Below are positions 3,078-13,283 of a stretch of DNA of 51,523 nucleotides, piece after piece. Under the pieces are notes generated by a model. That model was given only the letters and a program-made list of their open reading frames with translations, was not told where the DNA came from and did not search any database. Position 1 is the stretch's first letter. Each line of letters begins with the position of its first letter. Origin of the DNA: Candidatus Uhrbacteria bacterium (GTDB taxonomy: Bacteria > Patescibacteriota > Patescibacteriia > 2-12-FULL-60-25); contig CAITMG010000030.1 of NCBI GenBank assembly GCA_903893445.1, positions 1-51,523 of the forward strand. The letters are read 5' to 3'. The translations under genes and the position numbers were made by a program.

Positions 3078-4381
3078 CACACGAACCATTGGTTATCATC
3101 GAAGACTCGTTGCCGCCGGAGAGTATCGCGATGGTCGCGGCACTCTATTCCCGCGATCCAAAAAGCGTGACCGAGCATCTCAAAAAAGTTGCGGAGGTCG
3201 GGGCGGATAAGTTTATGGCCAACTACTACGTTGGCTATGGTCATGCGTCGATCGGTGACTGCGGATCCACAAGCATTTTCGTCGAACAAATCAGCATGCT
3301 TGCGGCCAAGGCGATTCAAGACTGGTCACTCTATAGCGGACAGGAAGCGTCTACGCGCTATATTGATTTTTCCTCACAGCCGATGATCGATCCGACAGAT
3401 TCGGACGCGGGAAAAGCGATTCAGGAAAAGTGGCGTGCATTTTATGTGACGTATCTCCCACGCATTCAGGAACACGTCGCATCACTTTACCCGCGACGCG
3501 ACGGTGAGGACGAAAAAGTCTACGCCAAGGCCGTGAAGGCACGCGCGTTTGATATCATGCGCGGCTTTTTGCCAGCTGGTGCCGCAACGCTTGTTGCCTG
3601 GCACACCAACCTTCGCCAAGCCGCGGACAAAACACAGCTCTTACGTCATCATCCCCTGCCGGAAATTCGCGCGATCGGTGAAAACGTTTTGACGGCTTTG
3701 CAGACACGCTATCCGAATAGCTTTAGTCATCAACGTTTTGAGAACACGGAAAATTATATTGAATCGTATTCCGCGGCGTTCACCTATCTTGATCCAGAGG
3801 CGCATCCGGAAAAACCTGTTTTAACAACAACGATTCAAAACGGCGATCTCGAAGCGTACTCCGATCTGTTGCAGAATCGTCCGATGAAAACCGGCCTCCC
3901 AACATTCTTGAATGAACTTGGTCAGTGTACGTTTGAATTCTTGCTCGACTTTGGGTCGTTTCGCGATTTGCAGCGTCATCGGAATGGCGTGTGCCGCATG
4001 CCGCTTTTGTCGACGCGATGGGGATTCCATCCATGGTATCTCGCGCAATTGCCGGAAGACGTTCGTGCCGCAGCAGAGACACTTCTTGCCGAGCAAAGCG
4101 CTGCGATCGCGGCACTCAACCTTTCGCCAGAAGTGCAACAATATTTTATCGCCATGGGATATCGCGTGCCGTGCCGCGTGACGTACGGACTCATGCCGAC
4201 CGTGTACACGATCGAGCTCCGCTCTGGAAAAATGGTGCACCCAACGTTGCGCAGTCTCGTGCATGACATGGTGCGTGAGATGCAAGCCAAACTCCCGCTC
4301 GTCAAACTGCATGTGGATATGGATTTGGATGACTGGGATGTTCGACGCGGGACGCACGACATCATCAAAAAAGACGCCTAA
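3074..4381 (+). CDS. ThyX-like FAD-dependent thymidylate synthase, long divergent form
   Basis: 435 aa with ..AALYSRDPKS.. and ..FRDLQRHRNG.. (RHR core). It is flanked by dcd and tmk. The serine spacing after RHR is non-canonical. Confidence 0.6.
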   Translation: MTHEPLVIIEDSLPPESIAMVAALYSRDPKSVTEHLKKVAEVGADKFMANYYVGYGHASIGDCGSTSIFVEQISMLAAKAIQDWSLYSGQEASTRYIDFSSQPMIDPTDSDAGKAIQEKWRAFYVTYLPRIQEHVASLYPRRDGEDEKVYAKAVKARAFDIMRGFLPAGAATLVAWHTNLRQAADKTQLLRHHPLPEIRAIGENVLTALQTRYPNSFSHQRFENTENYIESYSAAFTYLDPEAHPEKPVLTTTIQNGDLEAYSDLLQNRPMKTGLPTFLNELGQCTFEFLLDFGSFRDLQRHRNGVCRMPLLSTRWGFHPWYLAQLPEDVRAAAETLLAEQSAAIAALNLSPEVQQYFIAMGYRVPCRVTYGLMPTVYTIELRSGKMVHPTLRSLVHDMVREMQAKLPLVKLHVDMDLDDWDVRRGTHDIIKKDA

Positions 4382-4385
4382 CGGT

Positions 4386-5066
4386 ATGCCGTTCATTGTC
4401 ATTGACGGAACCGACGGCTCAGGAAAAGGCACACAAACAAAATTGCTCGTTGAACGGCTTCAACGCGAAGGTCGAACCGTGGAACAGCTCAGCTTTCCGC
4501 GGTATGGCAATCCGAGTGCACATTTTGTTGAACAGTATTTGAATGGACGGTATGGGACAGGGATGGATGTTGGCCCGCACCGATCGTCACTCTTTTACGC
4601 ACTGGATCGATTTGACGCGGCCGCGGGTATTCGAGCGGCGCTTGCCGCTGGAACTGTTGTGATCTCGGATCGCTATGTATCCGCCAACAAGGGACACCAG
4701 ATGGGAAAAATCACCGACCCCGCAGAGCGACAAGCGTTTCTCGATTGGATTAATGATCTGGAATATCGTGTGCTTGGGATTCCAAAACCAGATCTGACGA
4801 TTCTCCTCCACATGCCGTCGGAAATCGCGTATGAACTGATTGCAAAAAAAGATGACCGCGGATATTTGAACGGCAAAAAACGCGACATCCACGAAGCAGA
4901 CCCAGGACATCTCAAAGCTGCGGAACAGGCCTATCTCGAGATTCCATCGATGGACGTGGTTGAAAACTGGGAAGTTGTTTCCTGCATGGATGGTGGGAAT
5001 CTCATGAGCATTGAGACGATTCACGAAAAACTGTGGCAGCGCATCCTTCCACTCCTCAACGCGTAA
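4386..5066 (+). CDS. tmk: dTMP (thymidylate) kinase
   Basis: MPFIVIDGTDGSGKGTQTKLL..SFPRYG..DRY.. signature. The start was trimmed to the ATG at 4386, just after the thyX-like stop. Confidence 0.9.
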   Translation: MPFIVIDGTDGSGKGTQTKLLVERLQREGRTVEQLSFPRYGNPSAHFVEQYLNGRYGTGMDVGPHRSSLFYALDRFDAAAGIRAALAAGTVVISDRYVSANKGHQMGKITDPAERQAFLDWINDLEYRVLGIPKPDLTILLHMPSEIAYELIAKKDDRGYLNGKKRDIHEADPGHLKAAEQAYLEIPSMDVVENWEVVSCMDGGNLMSIETIHEKLWQRILPLLNA

Positions 5067-6014: not shown

Positions 6015-7535
6015 ATGCGTTACATCACTATTATTGGCCTTGAGGTCCACGTTCAGCTCAAAACCGCGTCCAAGATGTTTTGCTCCTGCAAAAACGTTGG
6101 TGACGATGCTCCGCCAAATACGGCGATCTGCCCGGTCTGTACGGGTCAACCTGGCGCGCTCCCGGCATTGAACGCCAAAGCGATCGAGCTTGGTATGACC
6201 GCCGGCCTGGCACTCAACTGCACGATTCCGGATCAGTCTGTTTTTGATCGCAAAAACTATTTTTATCCGGACTTGTCCAAAGGATATCAGATTTCCCAGT
6301 TTCATCTCCCAATTGCCATTAATGGCCGCATTGATTTTGATGTCCCCAATGGCATGCCGCAACGCGAACACGTTGTGATTGGCATTACGCGCGCGCATCT
6401 TGAGGAAGACGCGGCAAAGAATTTCCACGCCGCAAGCACGGGTGATGATGGACACGCCACCTACGTTGACTACAATCGATCCAGCACGCCGTTGCTTGAA
6501 ATCGTCAGTGAACCAGATATTCGATCGGCACAGGAAGCTAAAGCGTATCTCCAAGAGCTACGGAGTATTTTGCGCGCCGTCGGGGCATCAGATGCTGAGA
6601 TGGAAAATGGCCAGATGCGCTGTGATGCCAATGTCTCGCTGCTGCCAATCGGAGATGACAATTTGCCATTGATCCAAGGACTCAATCCAAAAGTGGAAAT
6701 CAAAAACCTCAACTCCTTTCGCGCGGTTGAACGTGCCATCACGTACGAGATTCAACGTCAGGGCGAGATGTATGAAGCCAACGAAGTCCCGATGGGCGCA
6801 ACGCGCGGATGGGATGAAGATCGCGGTGTGACGTTTGAACAGCGCACCAAAGAAACATCTGCGGACTATCGCTATTTCCCGGAACCAGATCTTCCGCCAC
6901 AGGATTTGCGTGCCATGCGTGAACATCTCTCAACGCGACTCCCAGAGCTGCCAGCAGAAAAGCGCGCGCGCTTGATGGAGGAATTTCTCTTCTCCCCTTC
7001 TGATGCGGCGTTCCTTGTGGCCAACGAAGGTTGGTCAGATTATGCGGATCACGTCATGGGCGAACTCAGCGAATGGATCGGCGGCGAATCAACGGAAGAG
7101 AAAAAGAAAAAATATGCGAAGCTCGCCGGAGGCTGGCTAACCACAAAACTCGCTGGTTTGTTGACGGAAAAAAATCTCACCATCACCACGCAAAAAATTG
7201 ATCCGGAAAACTTTGCCGAGTTTTTGCATCTCTTGGAGGCCGGCGAAATCAACAGCTCCAACGCACAAAAGTTGCTCGCGCTGATGCTCGAAAAAGGAAC
7301 AGATCCGTCACACATCATGGAGGAACACAATCTTGGGCAGAACATGCCAGATGCAGAACTTCTTGAAATCGCACAACGACTTGTCTCGCAAAATCCAGAT
7401 CAGGTCGCGCAGGTGAAGGCTGGGAAAGCTGGCGTTCTCAAATGGTTTGTCGGTGGTATCATGAAAGCCACAGAGGGCCGCGCCAATCCTGCCAAGGCCG
7501 AAGACATGGTGAAGACGGAAATCGACAAGCTATAA
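6015..7535 (+). CDS. gatB: Asp-tRNA(Asn)/Glu-tRNA(Gln) amidotransferase subunit B
   Basis: MRYITIIGLEVHVQL..MFCSC..CPVC.G.PGALP..DRKNYFYPDL.KGYQISQ.. is unmistakable GatB. Confidence 0.97.
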   Translation: MRYITIIGLEVHVQLKTASKMFCSCKNVGDDAPPNTAICPVCTGQPGALPALNAKAIELGMTAGLALNCTIPDQSVFDRKNYFYPDLSKGYQISQFHLPIAINGRIDFDVPNGMPQREHVVIGITRAHLEEDAAKNFHAASTGDDGHATYVDYNRSSTPLLEIVSEPDIRSAQEAKAYLQELRSILRAVGASDAEMENGQMRCDANVSLLPIGDDNLPLIQGLNPKVEIKNLNSFRAVERAITYEIQRQGEMYEANEVPMGATRGWDEDRGVTFEQRTKETSADYRYFPEPDLPPQDLRAMREHLSTRLPELPAEKRARLMEEFLFSPSDAAFLVANEGWSDYADHVMGELSEWIGGESTEEKKKKYAKLAGGWLTTKLAGLLTEKNLTITTQKIDPENFAEFLHLLEAGEINSSNAQKLLALMLEKGTDPSHIMEEHNLGQNMPDAELLEIAQRLVSQNPDQVAQVKAGKAGVLKWFVGGIMKATEGRANPAKAEDMVKTEIDKL

Positions 7536-10725: not shown

Positions 10726-11982
10726 CTACTCGACCTCGATCGCCATGAGGCGATTGTATTTTTCGACACGCTCGGAGCGCGAGAGTGAACCGGTTTTGAT
10801 ATATTCGGAACCAGAAGCCACCGCAAGATCCGCGATCGTTGTATCATCTGTTTCGCCGGAACGGTGCGAGATGATGGTTGCGAACTTTGCGTCTTGTGCC
10901 ATTTTGATCGCATCGACCGTCTCGGATAACGTGCCGATTTGATTCAACTTAATCAAAATTGCCGTTGCGGCTTTTTCCTTAATCCCCCGCTTTAAGCGCG
11001 TCACATTGGTCACAAAAAAGTCATCACCAACGATGAGCGCCTTCTTCTTTAGCGCAGGAACAGCCTTTTTCCACGCTTCCCAATCATCTTCCGCAAACGG
11101 ATCTTCGATGGAAATGAGCGGGTATTTTTTGAGCCAATTTTCGTAGCGTTTCAATAACTGTGCGGCGGTGAATGTCTTTCCTCCTTCGGCTTTAAACACG
11201 TACAACTTCTTTTCCGCATCATAAAATTCGCTGGATGCCACATCGGTTGCCAATGCGATATCAATCCCCGGCTTGTATCCCGCTTTTTTGATCGCGGCCA
11301 CAAGCAATTCAAATGCCGCTTCCACGTTTTTCAATTTTGGCGCAAAGCCGCCCTCATCACCGACTGTTGTCACGAACTTTTTTTGTTTTAATAGTTTAGC
11401 AAGGACATGAAAGACCTCTGACCCTGCGCGGACGCGTTCGCTGAATGTTTTTTGTCGCGGGATCAACATGCACTCCTGCACATCCAATGACCAGTCTGCG
11501 TGCGCACCACCATTGAGGACGTTCATCATCGGCAACGGTAATGCTGGCTTCCGATCAAAGTGATACGTTTGGCGCAAGGACTTCCAGAGCGGCATTTTGC
11601 GATGAATTGCCAATGCCTGCGCGCATCCGAGCGACACGGCCAAGATCGCATTGGCGCCAAATTTGGATTTATTTGGCGTACCATCCAGCCCGATCATCAA
11701 CTCATCAATCTCGCGTTGCTTTGCGGCATCCATCCCCTTTAATTTTGGCGCGATATCTAAATTGACATGGCTCACGGCTTTGCGCACGCCTTTTCCCCCA
11801 TAGCGCTCACCGCCATCACGCAACTCAAGAGCTTCATGTGAGCCGGTCGATGCACCAGATGGGACCTTTGCTTCTGCCGATGCGCCAGATGCTAGCGTGA
11901 CACGACAGGCCACCGTTGGGTTGCCCCGAGAATCAAGAATTTCACGTGCGACAACAGATTTGATTTTGGAAGTTAAAAACAT
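10726..11982 (-). CDS. eno: Enolase (phosphopyruvate hydratase)
   Basis: ..VVAREILDSRGNPTV.. and ..SHRSGETDD.. signatures. The start was trimmed to MFLTSKIKS. Confidence 0.97.
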   Translation of the reverse strand: MFLTSKIKSVVAREILDSRGNPTVACRVTLASGASAEAKVPSGASTGSHEALELRDGGERYGGKGVRKAVSHVNLDIAPKLKGMDAAKQREIDELMIGLDGTPNKSKFGANAILAVSLGCAQALAIHRKMPLWKSLRQTYHFDRKPALPLPMMNVLNGGAHADWSLDVQECMLIPRQKTFSERVRAGSEVFHVLAKLLKQKKFVTTVGDEGGFAPKLKNVEAAFELLVAAIKKAGYKPGIDIALATDVASSEFYDAEKKLYVFKAEGGKTFTAAQLLKRYENWLKKYPLISIEDPFAEDDWEAWKKAVPALKKKALIVGDDFFVTNVTRLKRGIKEKAATAILIKLNQIGTLSETVDAIKMAQDAKFATIISHRSGETDDTTIADLAVASGSEYIKTGSLSRSERVEKYNRLMAIEVE

Positions 11983-12022
11983 ATTTCGAACAAATAATAG
12001 CACGGAGGAGAAACGTACCCAT

Positions 12023-12057
12023 AACTCCCCCAACCCCCTCTTTAGCAAAGAGGGGGA
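12023..12057. repeat. Left terminal inverted repeat of the DUF559 cassette
   Basis: aactcccccaa + ccccctcttt-agca-aaagaggggg. The reverse complement of 12474-12508 differs only at 1 nt plus the loop. Confidence 0.85.
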
Positions 12058-12413
12058 TTTCTGAGAATCAGAAGAATTCTCCGCCTAACACCATCCATAT
12101 CTTTCAACAGCTCTTTGTTGGAAAAACGAATAACTCGTATCTGAAGGGCATTTAATTCCTTCGTTCGCTCTTCATCGTATCTTTTCTGTTCTGGTGCAGA
12201 ATGATATTCACCATCAGCTTCAATACAGAGCCTCTTTTTTGGAGCGTAAAAATCCAAAACATATAGCCCCACACCAAATTGTCGAAAAAATTTTATTCCT
12301 TCGATTTGTTTTCTTCGAAGAAGGTTCCACAGCATATCCTCAGCGAACGTCTGTTTTCTCCGAAGCCCCTTTCTTCGGTCTTTGAATTGGAAACGATTAT
12401 ACAAAATCCCCAT
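12042..12413 (-). CDS. DUF559 (Vsr-like) endonuclease domain protein
   Basis: ..FAEDMLWNLLR..I.G.KFFRQ..VG.YVLDFY.P..RLCIEADGEYH......YDEERTKELN..IRVIRFSN.E.. is the typical DUF559 pattern. Confidence 0.88.
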   Translation of the reverse strand: MGILYNRFQFKDRRKGLRRKQTFAEDMLWNLLRRKQIEGIKFFRQFGVGLYVLDFYAPKKRLCIEADGEYHSAPEQKRYDEERTKELNALQIRVIRFSNKELLKDMDGVRRRILLILRNPPLC

Positions 12414-12473
12414 TCTTCACCGCTACATTGTTTTATCATTTTTTTCAATACTGATTCAGCGTTAAAACAAATA

Positions 12474-12508
12474 CCCCCTCTTTGGTTAAAGAGGGGGTAG
12501 GGGGAGTT
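12474..12508. repeat. Right terminal inverted repeat of the DUF559 cassette
   Basis: ccccctcttt-ggtt-aaagaggggg + tagggggagtt. Confidence 0.85.
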
Positions 12509-12527
12509 TTACTGTGACTCTTATCGC

Positions 12528-13283
12528 TTATCTCACCTCAAACGTGACACTGACATCGGACGTCACATCCAACGACCCGGATTGAATCTGTGGGGACGGA
12601 GCCGGTGCAGCTGCAACCGCATCATATGCCTTTGCCATCATTGGATAGACGATTGGTGATCCACCCTGATTTTCTGAGAACGTCACCACTTTCACAATCG
12701 TGAGTCCAAGTTGCTTTGCTAACGCGCTCGCCTTTGTCCGTGCGTCATCAATCGCTTTTCCACGTGCCTGTGCCTGCAAGGAGGTCGGGTCATCAATCGT
12801 AAACGTGATGCCGCCAACCTGATTCGCGCCGAGTTCGCCACCCTTTGCGAGCACTTCACCAACGGAATCGAGATTTCGCACCTTCACATCAATATTTTGC
12901 GTCACGGTGTAGCCGATGATCTTAGATGTTCCATTTGTCCAATCCATTTTTGGCTGGATATTGTAGTTGGACGTTTGAATATCTTTTGCGGCAACCTGAA
13001 GCGCTTTGACGGCGCTAATGATCGCGTTCATCTTTTGCGTATTTTGCGCCTGCGCATCTTTCACCGTGAGCGCATCCGTTTGCACGCCAAGACTCACCTG
13101 TGCGAGATCTGGCTGTGACGTCACCTTCCCTTCCCCACTCACCACAATCGTATCGCGATCATGCGCGACTTTGCCGATGTAGTTATATTGCTCTGAAGCG
13201 TTTCGTGCCAACAACCCGACATACACAATAAGGGCGAGCGCCAAGAGACCAAGCACGCCGCCAAGAAAACGATTGTCTTTCAT
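12528..13283 (-). CDS. SIMPL (DUF541) domain periplasmic protein
   Basis: N-terminal TM followed by ..GEGKVTSQPDLAQVSLGV.T.A.T...A...N...M..I..A.. which is typical of the SIMPL / 26-kDa periplasmic immunogenic protein family. Confidence 0.85.
   Translation of the reverse strand: MKDNRFLGGVLGLLALALIVYVGLLARNASEQYNYIGKVAHDRDTIVVSGEGKVTSQPDLAQVSLGVQTDALTVKDAQAQNTQKMNAIISAVKALQVAAKDIQTSNYNIQPKMDWTNGTSKIIGYTVTQNIDVKVRNLDSVGEVLAKGGELGANQVGGITFTIDDPTSLQAQARGKAIDDARTKASALAKQLGLTIVKVVTFSENQGGSPIVYPMMAKAYDAVAAAPAPSPQIQSGSLDVTSDVSVTFEVR

Follow-up and report, generated by a model that had tools for sequence, protein, structure and literature searches.

A DUF559 nuclease gene between inverted three-block repeats at the SIMPL-enolase junction of a Candidatus Uhrbacteria genome: a proposed old selfish-type cassette

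In contig CAITMG010000030.1 of a Candidatus Uhrbacteria bacterium, analysed here over all of its 51,523 nucleotides and referred to as the window, the genes for enolase (eno) and for a SIMPL-domain protein are separated by a unit of 486 bp (12023-12508) that holds one intact 123-aa gene of the DUF559 nuclease family between two inverted ends of 34 and 35 nt. The question raised by this locus is whether such a unit is a mobile nuclease cassette, a repeat that carries a gene with it, or an ordinary gene with hairpin terminators. The unit is read here as an old selfish-type nuclease cassette that shows host co-option and that would have a homing-like mechanism, a statement to which, as a whole, a probability of roughly 0.55 is attached. 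Its parts differ in strength: it is quite likely that the unit belongs to a family of cassettes that are mobile or exchangeable in the evolutionary sense, possible though doubtful that the cassette's own nuclease drives the movement, and very unlikely that the copy in the window is active today.

Anatomy of the cassette and its nuclease

A sequence-only reading of the window had described a 486-bp DUF559 cassette with inverted hairpin ends that are alike except for one base and the loop, with a 123-aa DUF559 protein as its only cargo and the stop codon of this gene inside the left hairpin. Direct reading of the letters, a repeat search and folding bear out this description, and Pfam matches to both flanking genes place the cassette between eno and the SIMPL gene as had been stated. 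The features are listed below, where L008 and L112 denote the corresponding loci of two relatives.

12500-12508, minus strand: outer block of the upstream end, GGGGGAGTT on the plus strand and AACTCCCCC on the minus strand by direct read, mirroring the adjacent purine arm
12472-12499, minus strand: upstream hairpin, stem TACCCCCTCTTT / AAAGAGGGGGTA (12 bp), loop 12484-12487, -12.4 kcal/mol, z = -4.0
12414-12471, minus strand: leader of the DUF559 gene, from alignment with the L008 and L112 alleles
12042-12413, minus strand: DUF559 gene, 123 aa, Pfam PF04480, E = 2.7e-30
12034-12056, minus strand: downstream hairpin, stem CCCCCTCTTT / AAAGAGGGGG (10 bp), loop 12044-12046, -10.6 kcal/mol, z = -3.3
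12023-12031, minus strand: outer block of the downstream end, AACTCCCCC on the plus strand and GGGGGAGTT on the minus strand, with AA/TT between block and hairpin
12509-12527, minus strand: SIMPL-side spacer, 19 nt from the SIMPL stop to the cassette
11983-12022, minus strand: eno-side spacer, 40 nt from the cassette to the eno ATG, with a TATTAT -10-like box
12528-13283, minus strand: SIMPL-domain gene, upstream flank, Pfam PF04402, E = 2.7e-58
10726-11982, minus strand: enolase gene, downstream flank, Pfam Enolase_N and Enolase_C

Read directly, the left end (12023-12056) is AACTCCCCC-AA-CCCCCTCTTT-AGC-AAAGAGGGGG and the right end (12474-12508) is CCCCCTCTTT-GGTT-AAAGAGGGGG-TA-GGGGGAGTT, the reverse complement of which, AACTCCCCC-TA-CCCCCTCTTT-AACC-AAAGAGGGGG, differs from the left end in one spacer base and in the loop (3 vs 4 nt). 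The ends had been taken to be hairpins throughout, which holds for stems of 10-12 bp but not for the outer 9 nt of each end, a separate block that lies outside the hairpin and mirrors the purine arm. The repeat search recovered the inverted pair (I1/I2) together with the hairpins I4 (12-bp stem) and I6 (10-bp stem). At up to 3 mismatches the 18-mer AACTCCCCCWACCCCCTC has only two sites in the 51.5-kb window, the cassette ends in inverted orientation, against 0.02 in shuffles. The folding energies listed are for single-stranded DNA, and none of 200 shuffles was as stable as either end.

The DUF559 gene is the sole long open reading frame (ORF) within the unit. Its TAA stop (12044-12042) straddles the loop and 3' arm of the left hairpin, taking the final base of the loop and the two bases with which the arm begins, and its last codons (NPPLC) and stop sit within the downstream hairpin. 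The two inner hairpins can also be read as direct repeats of 23-24 nt, and the G+C content inside the unit is 0.38-0.42 vs about 0.50 around it. In their leaders the alleles of the window, L008 and L112, all of which are highly divergent, have an 8-nt box, GTAGCGGT, at 5-6 nt from the ATG, and TTGAAA, about 25-35 nt farther upstream of this box, is common to the three leaders (region 12414-12440 in the window).

The protein matches the DUF559 profile over residues 11-117 with 104.9 bits (cut-off 20.6), and a profile of 17 homologues retrieved PDB 3HRL, a structural-genomics "endonuclease-like protein" (E = 1.7e-31), as well as 3R3P, the catalytic domain of the homing endonuclease I-Bth0305I (E = 8.8e-5). 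I-Bth0305I defines the Vsr-like "EDxHD" homing family, dimerises, cuts a pseudopalindromic site with 2-base 5' overhangs and carries an N-terminal NUMOD/helix-turn-helix (HTH) region (PMC3239194). With the roles of catalytic residues (metal-binding Asp, E-x-D, His, distal Asp) taken from the same work, D54, E65, H71 and D80 were invariant and D67 nearly so in the 17 homologues, and all five are present in the window protein, which by these comparisons is a DUF559 member homologous to the Vsr-like EDxHD homing nucleases. The cut-off of the E. coli YcjD equivalog model NF007294 was not reached (54.5 bits vs 218); judged by sequence, the protein is a relative of YcjD and not an equivalog. Matches in the PADLOC library were weak, one of them being to a homing-endonuclease model. 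Between the window and L008 alleles the nonsynonymous divergence (dN) is 0.27 vs a synonymous divergence (dS) of about 2.5, which indicates purifying selection on DUF559.

Cassette history at the SIMPL-eno junction

The window strain itself has been assembled repeatedly (L001-L007 and L202). In relatives the eno-SIMPL junction, the comparison of which the sequence-only reading had proposed, was found in occupied, empty, lost and replaced states, listed here with the identity of SIMPL to that of the window.

L112, SIMPL 98% and eno 99%: cassette present, DUF559 55% identical
L113/L114, SIMPL 88%: cassette absent, 82-nt spacer with an unrelated terminator hairpin
L008, SIMPL 81%: cassette present, DUF559 65% identical
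L115, SIMPL 73%: junction empty, 9-nt gap
L203, SIMPL 71%: junction empty, 8-nt gap
L116, SIMPL 71%: junction with an unrelated 293-aa ORF on the other strand
L204-206, SIMPL 68%: junction empty, 6-nt gap

A SIMPL tree united the window, L008, L112 and L113 in one clade with support of 98/94 (99/99 at an inner node) and left L115, L203 and L204 outside, with the cassette-less L113 nested within the occupied clade. The simplest reading is one gain, at a junction until then tight, in the ancestor of the L008/window/L112/L113 clade of Uhrbacteria-like Patescibacteria, tiny bacteria from groundwater and lakes, and one loss in L113. The view that the gene is not a fixed housekeeping gene is upheld by the empty sites in relatives and by the loss inside the occupied clade.

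At the cassette site the history of the gene conflicts with that of the host. Between the window and L112 the flanks have dS of 0.72-0.78, dN of about 0.012 and a third-position identity of 0.66-0.67, and DUF559 has a dN of 0.37, a saturated dS beyond computation and a third-position identity of 0.415. The more distant host L008 holds an allele closer to that of the window (65%) than is the allele of L112 (55%). At least one allele has evidently been replaced by a deeply divergent DUF559 within the clade, and across these divergent alleles 19-20 of 20 positions in the repeat arms are conserved. For this one step a different account would be a single insertion followed by fast mutation at the site itself, for example from structure-induced error-prone repair, and by an additional burst in L112. 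Raised variability at triplex-motif loci (PMC4666352) would fit such a course, as would the isolation of the DUF559 alleles found, each of them a lineage with no close relatives. Outside the ends, however, the spacers of the window and L112 are of different length and defy alignment, which point mutation does not explain, while on the eno side the more distant L008 keeps 33 of 40 positions. With repeat arms almost unchanged, ORFs intact and catalytic residues kept as well, in-place mutation is considered a distinctly improbable explanation.

On the SIMPL side the spacer cannot be aligned among the occupied relatives (3 nt in L112, 7 nt in L008 and 19 nt in the window). The 40-nt spacer on the eno side is shared with L008 and in part with the cassette-less L113, the 3' part of whose spacer resembles it, and is absent where the SIMPL-eno gap is 6-9 nt. 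By these alignments and the SIMPL tree, the gene was gained and lost at this junction jointly with both of its ends.

Other events were noted at the same junction. The opposite-strand ORF of L116 (3300-4181) has no family match, and together with the cassette it indicates that the junction has been hit by at least two unrelated insertions. L006 was considered as a second genomic context of the cassette and rejected as a chimeric contig in which 206 nt (1-206) of high-G+C foreign DNA are joined to SIMPL of the window strain. In several independent metagenome assemblies of the window strain (L004, L005, L007 and L202) the contigs are interrupted within the upstream repeat or at its edge, L007 beginning exactly at its outer base and L202 stopping 21 nt into it, which suggests that this repeat is a branch point in assembly graphs.

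It had also been proposed that the hairpins double as terminators, which is tenable for the upstream end only. This end (12499-12472), with its tail TTTGTTTTAA on the minus strand, passes an intrinsic terminator scan, and a G/C-rich hairpin followed by TTTGTTTTAA is terminator-like for SIMPL; it has, in sequence, the form of an intrinsic terminator directly after that gene. In the same scan the downstream end showed no T-tail. Each cassette-interrupted junction has a spacer with a -10-like box before eno. The host seems to have co-opted the cassette in part, in that the upstream end is terminator-like and the accompanying DNA lies where eno now needs a promoter of its own. The scan result would likewise be expected of an ordinary chromosomal housekeeping repair nuclease whose rho-independent terminators resemble one another through a general preference for G/C-rich stems, and at several Patescibacteria loci (L034, L083, L100 and L105) a T-run comes after the same hairpin. 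Such a gene would not account for the missing T-tail downstream or for the conserved non-stem block AACTCCCCC/GGGGGAGTT on both ends. It would also have to be absent from most relatives and replaced in one, with the empty sites and allele incongruence described above, and PIT elements, to which the ends are compared below, had no terminator activity in E. coli (PMC4666352). An ordinary repair gene is accordingly rated as highly improbable.

End repeats and their association with DUF559 genes

The ends were compared with BoxC, the later PIT elements and TMECO, which have been described as "intrastrand triplex" repeats (Holder et al. 2015, PMC4666352), with earlier BoxC/PIT work by Bergler and by Hoyne and Maher cited in that paper. 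These repeats are G/C-rich, intergenic, present in multiple copies in many bacteria and without a known function or partner protein. Triplex-motif repeats are widespread in intergenic DNA and tied to locus variability, and TMECO loci have been linked to raised rearrangement, with no mobility gene found nearby (PMC4666352). DUF559 and ycjD are unmentioned in that study. The cassette ends share with them a pyrimidine arm, a loop of 3-6 nt, a complementary purine arm, a short second loop and a second G-rich block for the purine arm.

Under the general definition of the class, ITxF, a repeat has three blocks in succession, its stems are 6-15 nt long with no more than one mismatch, its loops measure 1-6 nt and its third block follows the triad rules (PMC4666352). 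Both cassette ends fall within this definition: the duplex stem has 10 nt, the first loop 3-4 nt, the second loop 2 nt and the third block 9 nt. Read with the purine arm second, each end runs pyrimidine arm, loop, purine arm AAAGAGGGGG, two bases and GGGGGAGTT, the last being the mirror image of AAAGAGGGGG with T replacing A at the last two positions. All nine positions of the outer block pair with the purine arm by allowed triads (G.G, A.A, T.A), so the block could serve as a triplex third strand. On sequence grounds the ends are thus assigned to the BoxC/PIT-type three-block class and are predicted to be triplex-capable. The strict TMECO consensus, CCCTCNCCC N3-6 GGGNGAGGG N3 GGGNGAGGG (PMC4666352), was not found in the window arms (CCCCCTCTTT / AAAGAGGGGG / GGGGGAGTT); the arms are off consensus and the second loop has 2 nt vs 3 nt in TMECO. 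The cassette further differs from BoxC, PIT and TMECO in that two inverted copies frame a gene.

Within the window, the two cassette ends are the only copies of the triplex class. On a different contig, recovered in three lake-water runs, a left-end copy with 3 differences is followed by GTTTTTAG. The depth of this contig matches that of the window's genome (18.5 vs 18.2, 10 vs 10.7 and 5.9 vs 5.2), and it probably carries a solo copy in the window's own genome.

In support of the sequence-only reading, the end motif was found to be widespread both with and without DUF559. In a species-representative genome collection of 596 Gb the 21-mer AACTCCCCCNACCCCCTCTTT was found in 103 DNA stretches, where about 1 match would be expected for a random 20-mer, and in nearly all cases it is followed by the matching purine arm. 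The matches fall in Patescibacteria and Saccharibacteria, Planctomycetota, Acidobacteriota, Omnitrophota, Nitrospirota, Desulfobacterota-type metagenome-assembled genomes (MAGs), Gammaproteobacteria and Bacteroidia. Many copies are complete solo intergenic palindromes of about 45 nt in which a hairpin stands between two outer blocks, a perfect example being L033 1374-1418 (-25.2 kcal/mol, z = -8.3), and some genomes contain whole palindrome families, such as OY970181.1 and Thermoanaerobaculia Bin_89R. Seen against these, the window gene sits inside a composite palindrome, between two copies of the inner hairpin. The sequence-only reading had named generic terminators after many unrelated genes as an outcome that would refute it; solo copies do stand behind many unrelated genes, which goes part of the way toward that outcome, but the repeats are more than plain terminators. 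Identity of AACTCCCCCNACCCCCTCTTT across phyla was not accepted as proof of horizontal transfer, as the space of pyrimidine-only arm sequences is small and the collection searched is huge, which leaves convergence possible. Among viral contigs there were two matches to the end motif, both without the hairpin, and no evidence of phage carriage.

Several of these genomes show the repeat in further arrangements. OY970181.1, a 1.19-Mb MAG (L009, L021, L040, L062, L077, L081, L091 and L101), has a family resembling miniature inverted-repeat transposable elements (MITEs), with units of 120-180 bp that end in AACTCCCCCNACCCCCTCTTT and have extended conserved flanks, cgAACTCCCCC...GAGTGGGCTAAGA; at L062 5797-6159 a DUF559 gene lies between two such units. 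At L110 6161-6652 the repeat (motif 6486-6506) is in frame within a YbaK-like ORF, reading ...TPPTPSLIKEGAKGAF..., and a homologous YbaK-like protein in L055 is without the repeat-encoded stretch; like the palindromic elements of Rickettsia, the L110 repeat is a solo copy inserted in frame. At L089 3545-4440 (Thermoanaerobaculia Bin_89R) there are three repeats with a 225-nt period, each after a DUF559 3'-end fragment, and a full DUF559 gene (4014-4400) adjoins this array of tails and repeats, which suggests repeated recombination at the hairpin.

DUF559 genes and the repeats were found to be closely associated in two samples. In about 800 kb around the matches to AACTCCCCCNACCCCCTCTTT, all seven DUF559 ORFs directly abut end modules. 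A second sample of 80 DUF559 loci was drawn from metagenomes by protein pattern, independently of the DNA motif. A pyrimidine-loop-purine hairpin was present within 120 nt upstream in 70 of the 80 loci, downstream in 55/77 and on both sides in 49/77, and the hairpin density was 7.3 per kb in DUF559 flanks vs 0.34 per kb at distances above 200 nt. In 60/83 DUF559 loci the upstream hairpin comes with a third mirror block, and arms are more alike within one locus (0.72) than between loci (0.60), a difference reached in 0 of 5000 permutations. In the commoner arrangement (16 complete cases) the third blocks face the gene, as hairpin-GGGGAGTT, a few bases, ATG ... TAA-CCCC...-hairpin, and in the rarer one (8 complete cases, including the window, L008 and L112) they face outward. 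No description of an association of DUF559 with inverted repeats or palindromes was found in the literature.

In E. coli the DUF559 gene ycjD ends with a TGA that lies in the loop of a CCCTCTCCC-type hairpin; downstream there follow a leftover duplicate of the gene's last ~60 nt and, at 170 nt, a canonical TMECO. The locus (L197 8040-8840) is E. coli K-12 fabI-ycjD-sapF, and at least 80% of this 1-kb region is present in 3346/5426 complete E. coli genomes; uropathogenic E. coli (UPEC) 536 and an O157 strain have a TetR/RND efflux module after fabI.

The solo copies raise the alternative that the repeats are the active entity, recombinogenic and unstable, with the nuclease as a passenger or a host-side partner in the manner of a domesticated RAYT for REP (repetitive extragenic palindromic) sequences. 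Such sites would capture small genes, or the enzyme would process repeat structures for the host. Two findings fit this alternative and at the same time weigh against a cassette moved by its own nuclease. Most copies of the end motif are solo and beside ordinary unrelated genes, so the gene is not needed for the repeat to exist and perhaps not for it to spread; and DUF559 proteins beside identical 21-mers are only 43-48% identical to that of the window, no closer than those with other arms, which argues against tight co-evolution of nuclease and arm sequence. The rearrangement reported for TMECO loci with no mobility gene would agree with it, the tandem 3' DUF559 fragments of L089 and the remnant next to ycjD look like products of recombination at repeats, and the window itself has another small gene framed by a different inverted repeat. 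The latter, a 137-aa four-helix-bundle gene (ORF 2072-2485, in 2041-2510), lies between inverted arrays of GTAGCT-type words (2041-2070 and 2480-2510), and its product is a 23S rRNA intervening-sequence protein (PF05635, E = 4.8e-37); its repeat has no third block. A passenger role is harder to reconcile with the seven out of seven ORFs that abut modules, with the 21-fold higher hairpin density in DUF559 flanks and with the joint arrival and departure of the gene and both ends at the SIMPL-eno site. Junctions between gene and repeat are also tight and stereotyped, the stop lying in the loop or overlapping AACTC and the ATG a few nt after GAGTT, which would not be expected of random capture. 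Active repeats with the nuclease as passenger or host-side partner are considered a rather unlikely explanation, and the nuclease cassette remains the preferred reading.

Known systems, mobility and meaning

In evolutionary pattern the cassette resembles a free-standing homing gene and in layout a REP-RAYT unit, with an unrelated enzyme. With the free-standing and intron-borne homing endonuclease genes of the Vsr-like EDxHD family (I-Bth0305I, PDB 3R3P; PMC3239194) it shares a homologous catalytic core with E, D, H and D, patchy presence at one site among relatives and the conflict of gene tree and host tree. Occupied (window, L112, L008) and empty (L113/114, L115, L203, L204-206) alleles of one site, the pattern sought in a homing gene, are both present. 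Unlike genes of the I-Bth0305I type it has no intron, intein or NUMOD/HTH domain, and it has structured inverted ends, of which homing endonuclease genes need none.

In REP/REPIN-RAYT systems, or REPtrons, reportedly the subject of work by Nunvar (2010), Bertels and Rainey (2011) and Ton-Hoang (2012), one enzyme gene is likewise flanked by inverted hairpin repeats that are also scattered solo or paired in intergenic DNA, and dispersal of DUF559-type end repeats is seen in other genomes, such as OY970181.1 and Thermoanaerobaculia Bin_89R. The enzyme of the window cassette differs in being a PD-(D/E)XK/Vsr-fold nuclease and not a Y1 (HUH) transposase, and the repeat differs in its third mirror block. 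The cassettes of PF05635 proteins, exemplified in the window, are similar in having a gene of about 120-140 aa that inverted repeats loop out, and differ in protein fold, in repeat words and in lacking a third block.

With MITEs and small insertion sequences (ISs) the cassette has in common terminal inverted repeats, small size and intergenic insertion. A MITE or IS was nevertheless ruled out, there being no target-site duplication, no near-identical copies in the non-exhaustive search given below and no transposase of a known family within ~4 kb. The earlier proposal of a minimal selfish element, either homing-like or MITE-like, is thus retained in its insertion-like aspect, given the empty sites, the one loss and the divergent allele in a near-identical background, and abandoned as regards a MITE in the transposon sense. 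An integron cassette was considered as well. In attC sites the R''/R' boxes RYYYAAC ... GTTRRRY pair outward from AAC/GTT; in the window cassette the pairing runs inward from AAC/GTT, the flanks beyond are not complementary and there is no integrase within ~4 kb, and this candidate was rejected.

A mechanism can be outlined for the cassette as a homing-like element. The nuclease, probably a dimer like its relative I-Bth0305I, would nick or cut the palindromic or extruded form of the repeat, or the cassette-less allele, and recombinational repair from a cassette-bearing copy would then spread or exchange the gene in the manner of homing. If the two inner hairpins recombined with each other, the gene would be deleted and a solo 45-nt palindrome like those of many genomes would remain. 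A solo palindrome whose hairpin recombined with that of a circle, one bearing the gene and a single hairpin, would also give the layout seen in the window.

Besides the solo copies and the protein divergence given above, a number of observations count against the cassette as a homing-like element. The duplication that the sequence-only reading had suggested looking for at the ends is absent from the window, where the flanks (...cacagtaa / AACT and AGTT / atgggtac) have no shared bases, and from L008 and L112 likewise. A non-exhaustive search by shared 5-residue words found no close copy of the window or L112 DUF559 in another context, which gives no sign of recent movement. Since no solo repeat is present at the empty SIMPL-eno sites of relatives, the cassette did not home into an existing palindrome at this junction. 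Contigs of the source lake metagenomes, in which rare variants are dropped, included none that skips the cassette, and the gene list shows no recombinase or transposase within ~4 kb of it. For repair, the arms alone give only ~20 nt of homology. The protein, at only 123 aa, is without a separate DNA-binding domain, unlike I-Bth0305I (PMC3239194), and PIT elements were without activity in the assays summarised in PMC4666352.

A broader proposition, speculative and on balance unlikely, is that DUF559 genes with three-block ends form an unrecognised, phylum-spanning class of autonomous mobile cassettes moved by a Vsr-fold nuclease acting on structured DNA such as hairpins, cruciforms or triplex-prone stretches, with the orphan BoxC/PIT/TMECO repeats as non-autonomous derivatives, footprints or targets.

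For genome analysis, cassettes of this kind split operons (here SIMPL-eno), cause metagenome assemblies to break, with contigs that stop in the repeat, and lengthen annotated proteins by spurious C-terminal tails. The locus described here adds a stand-alone, outward-facing arrangement in a Patescibacteria genome and a protein-selected sample that quantifies the DUF559-hairpin association, and it allows a full evolutionary series of empty, occupied, replaced and lost states to be read at one operon junction. The small nucleases of DUF559, a very large family, have a solved structure (3HRL) but no function assigned to them, and the BoxC/PIT/TMECO repeats have been known since the 1990s without function or partner and with no mobility activity found near them (PMC4666352). 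The tight, statistically strong and phylum-wide linkage of the two makes both questions jointly testable. If the broader proposition is true, DUF559 would be the first protein partner for BoxC/PIT/TMECO repeats, as RAYT was for REPs, and if the nuclease cuts the repeat and moves the cassette, the result would be a new kind of bacterial mobile element together with a new structure-specific nuclease.

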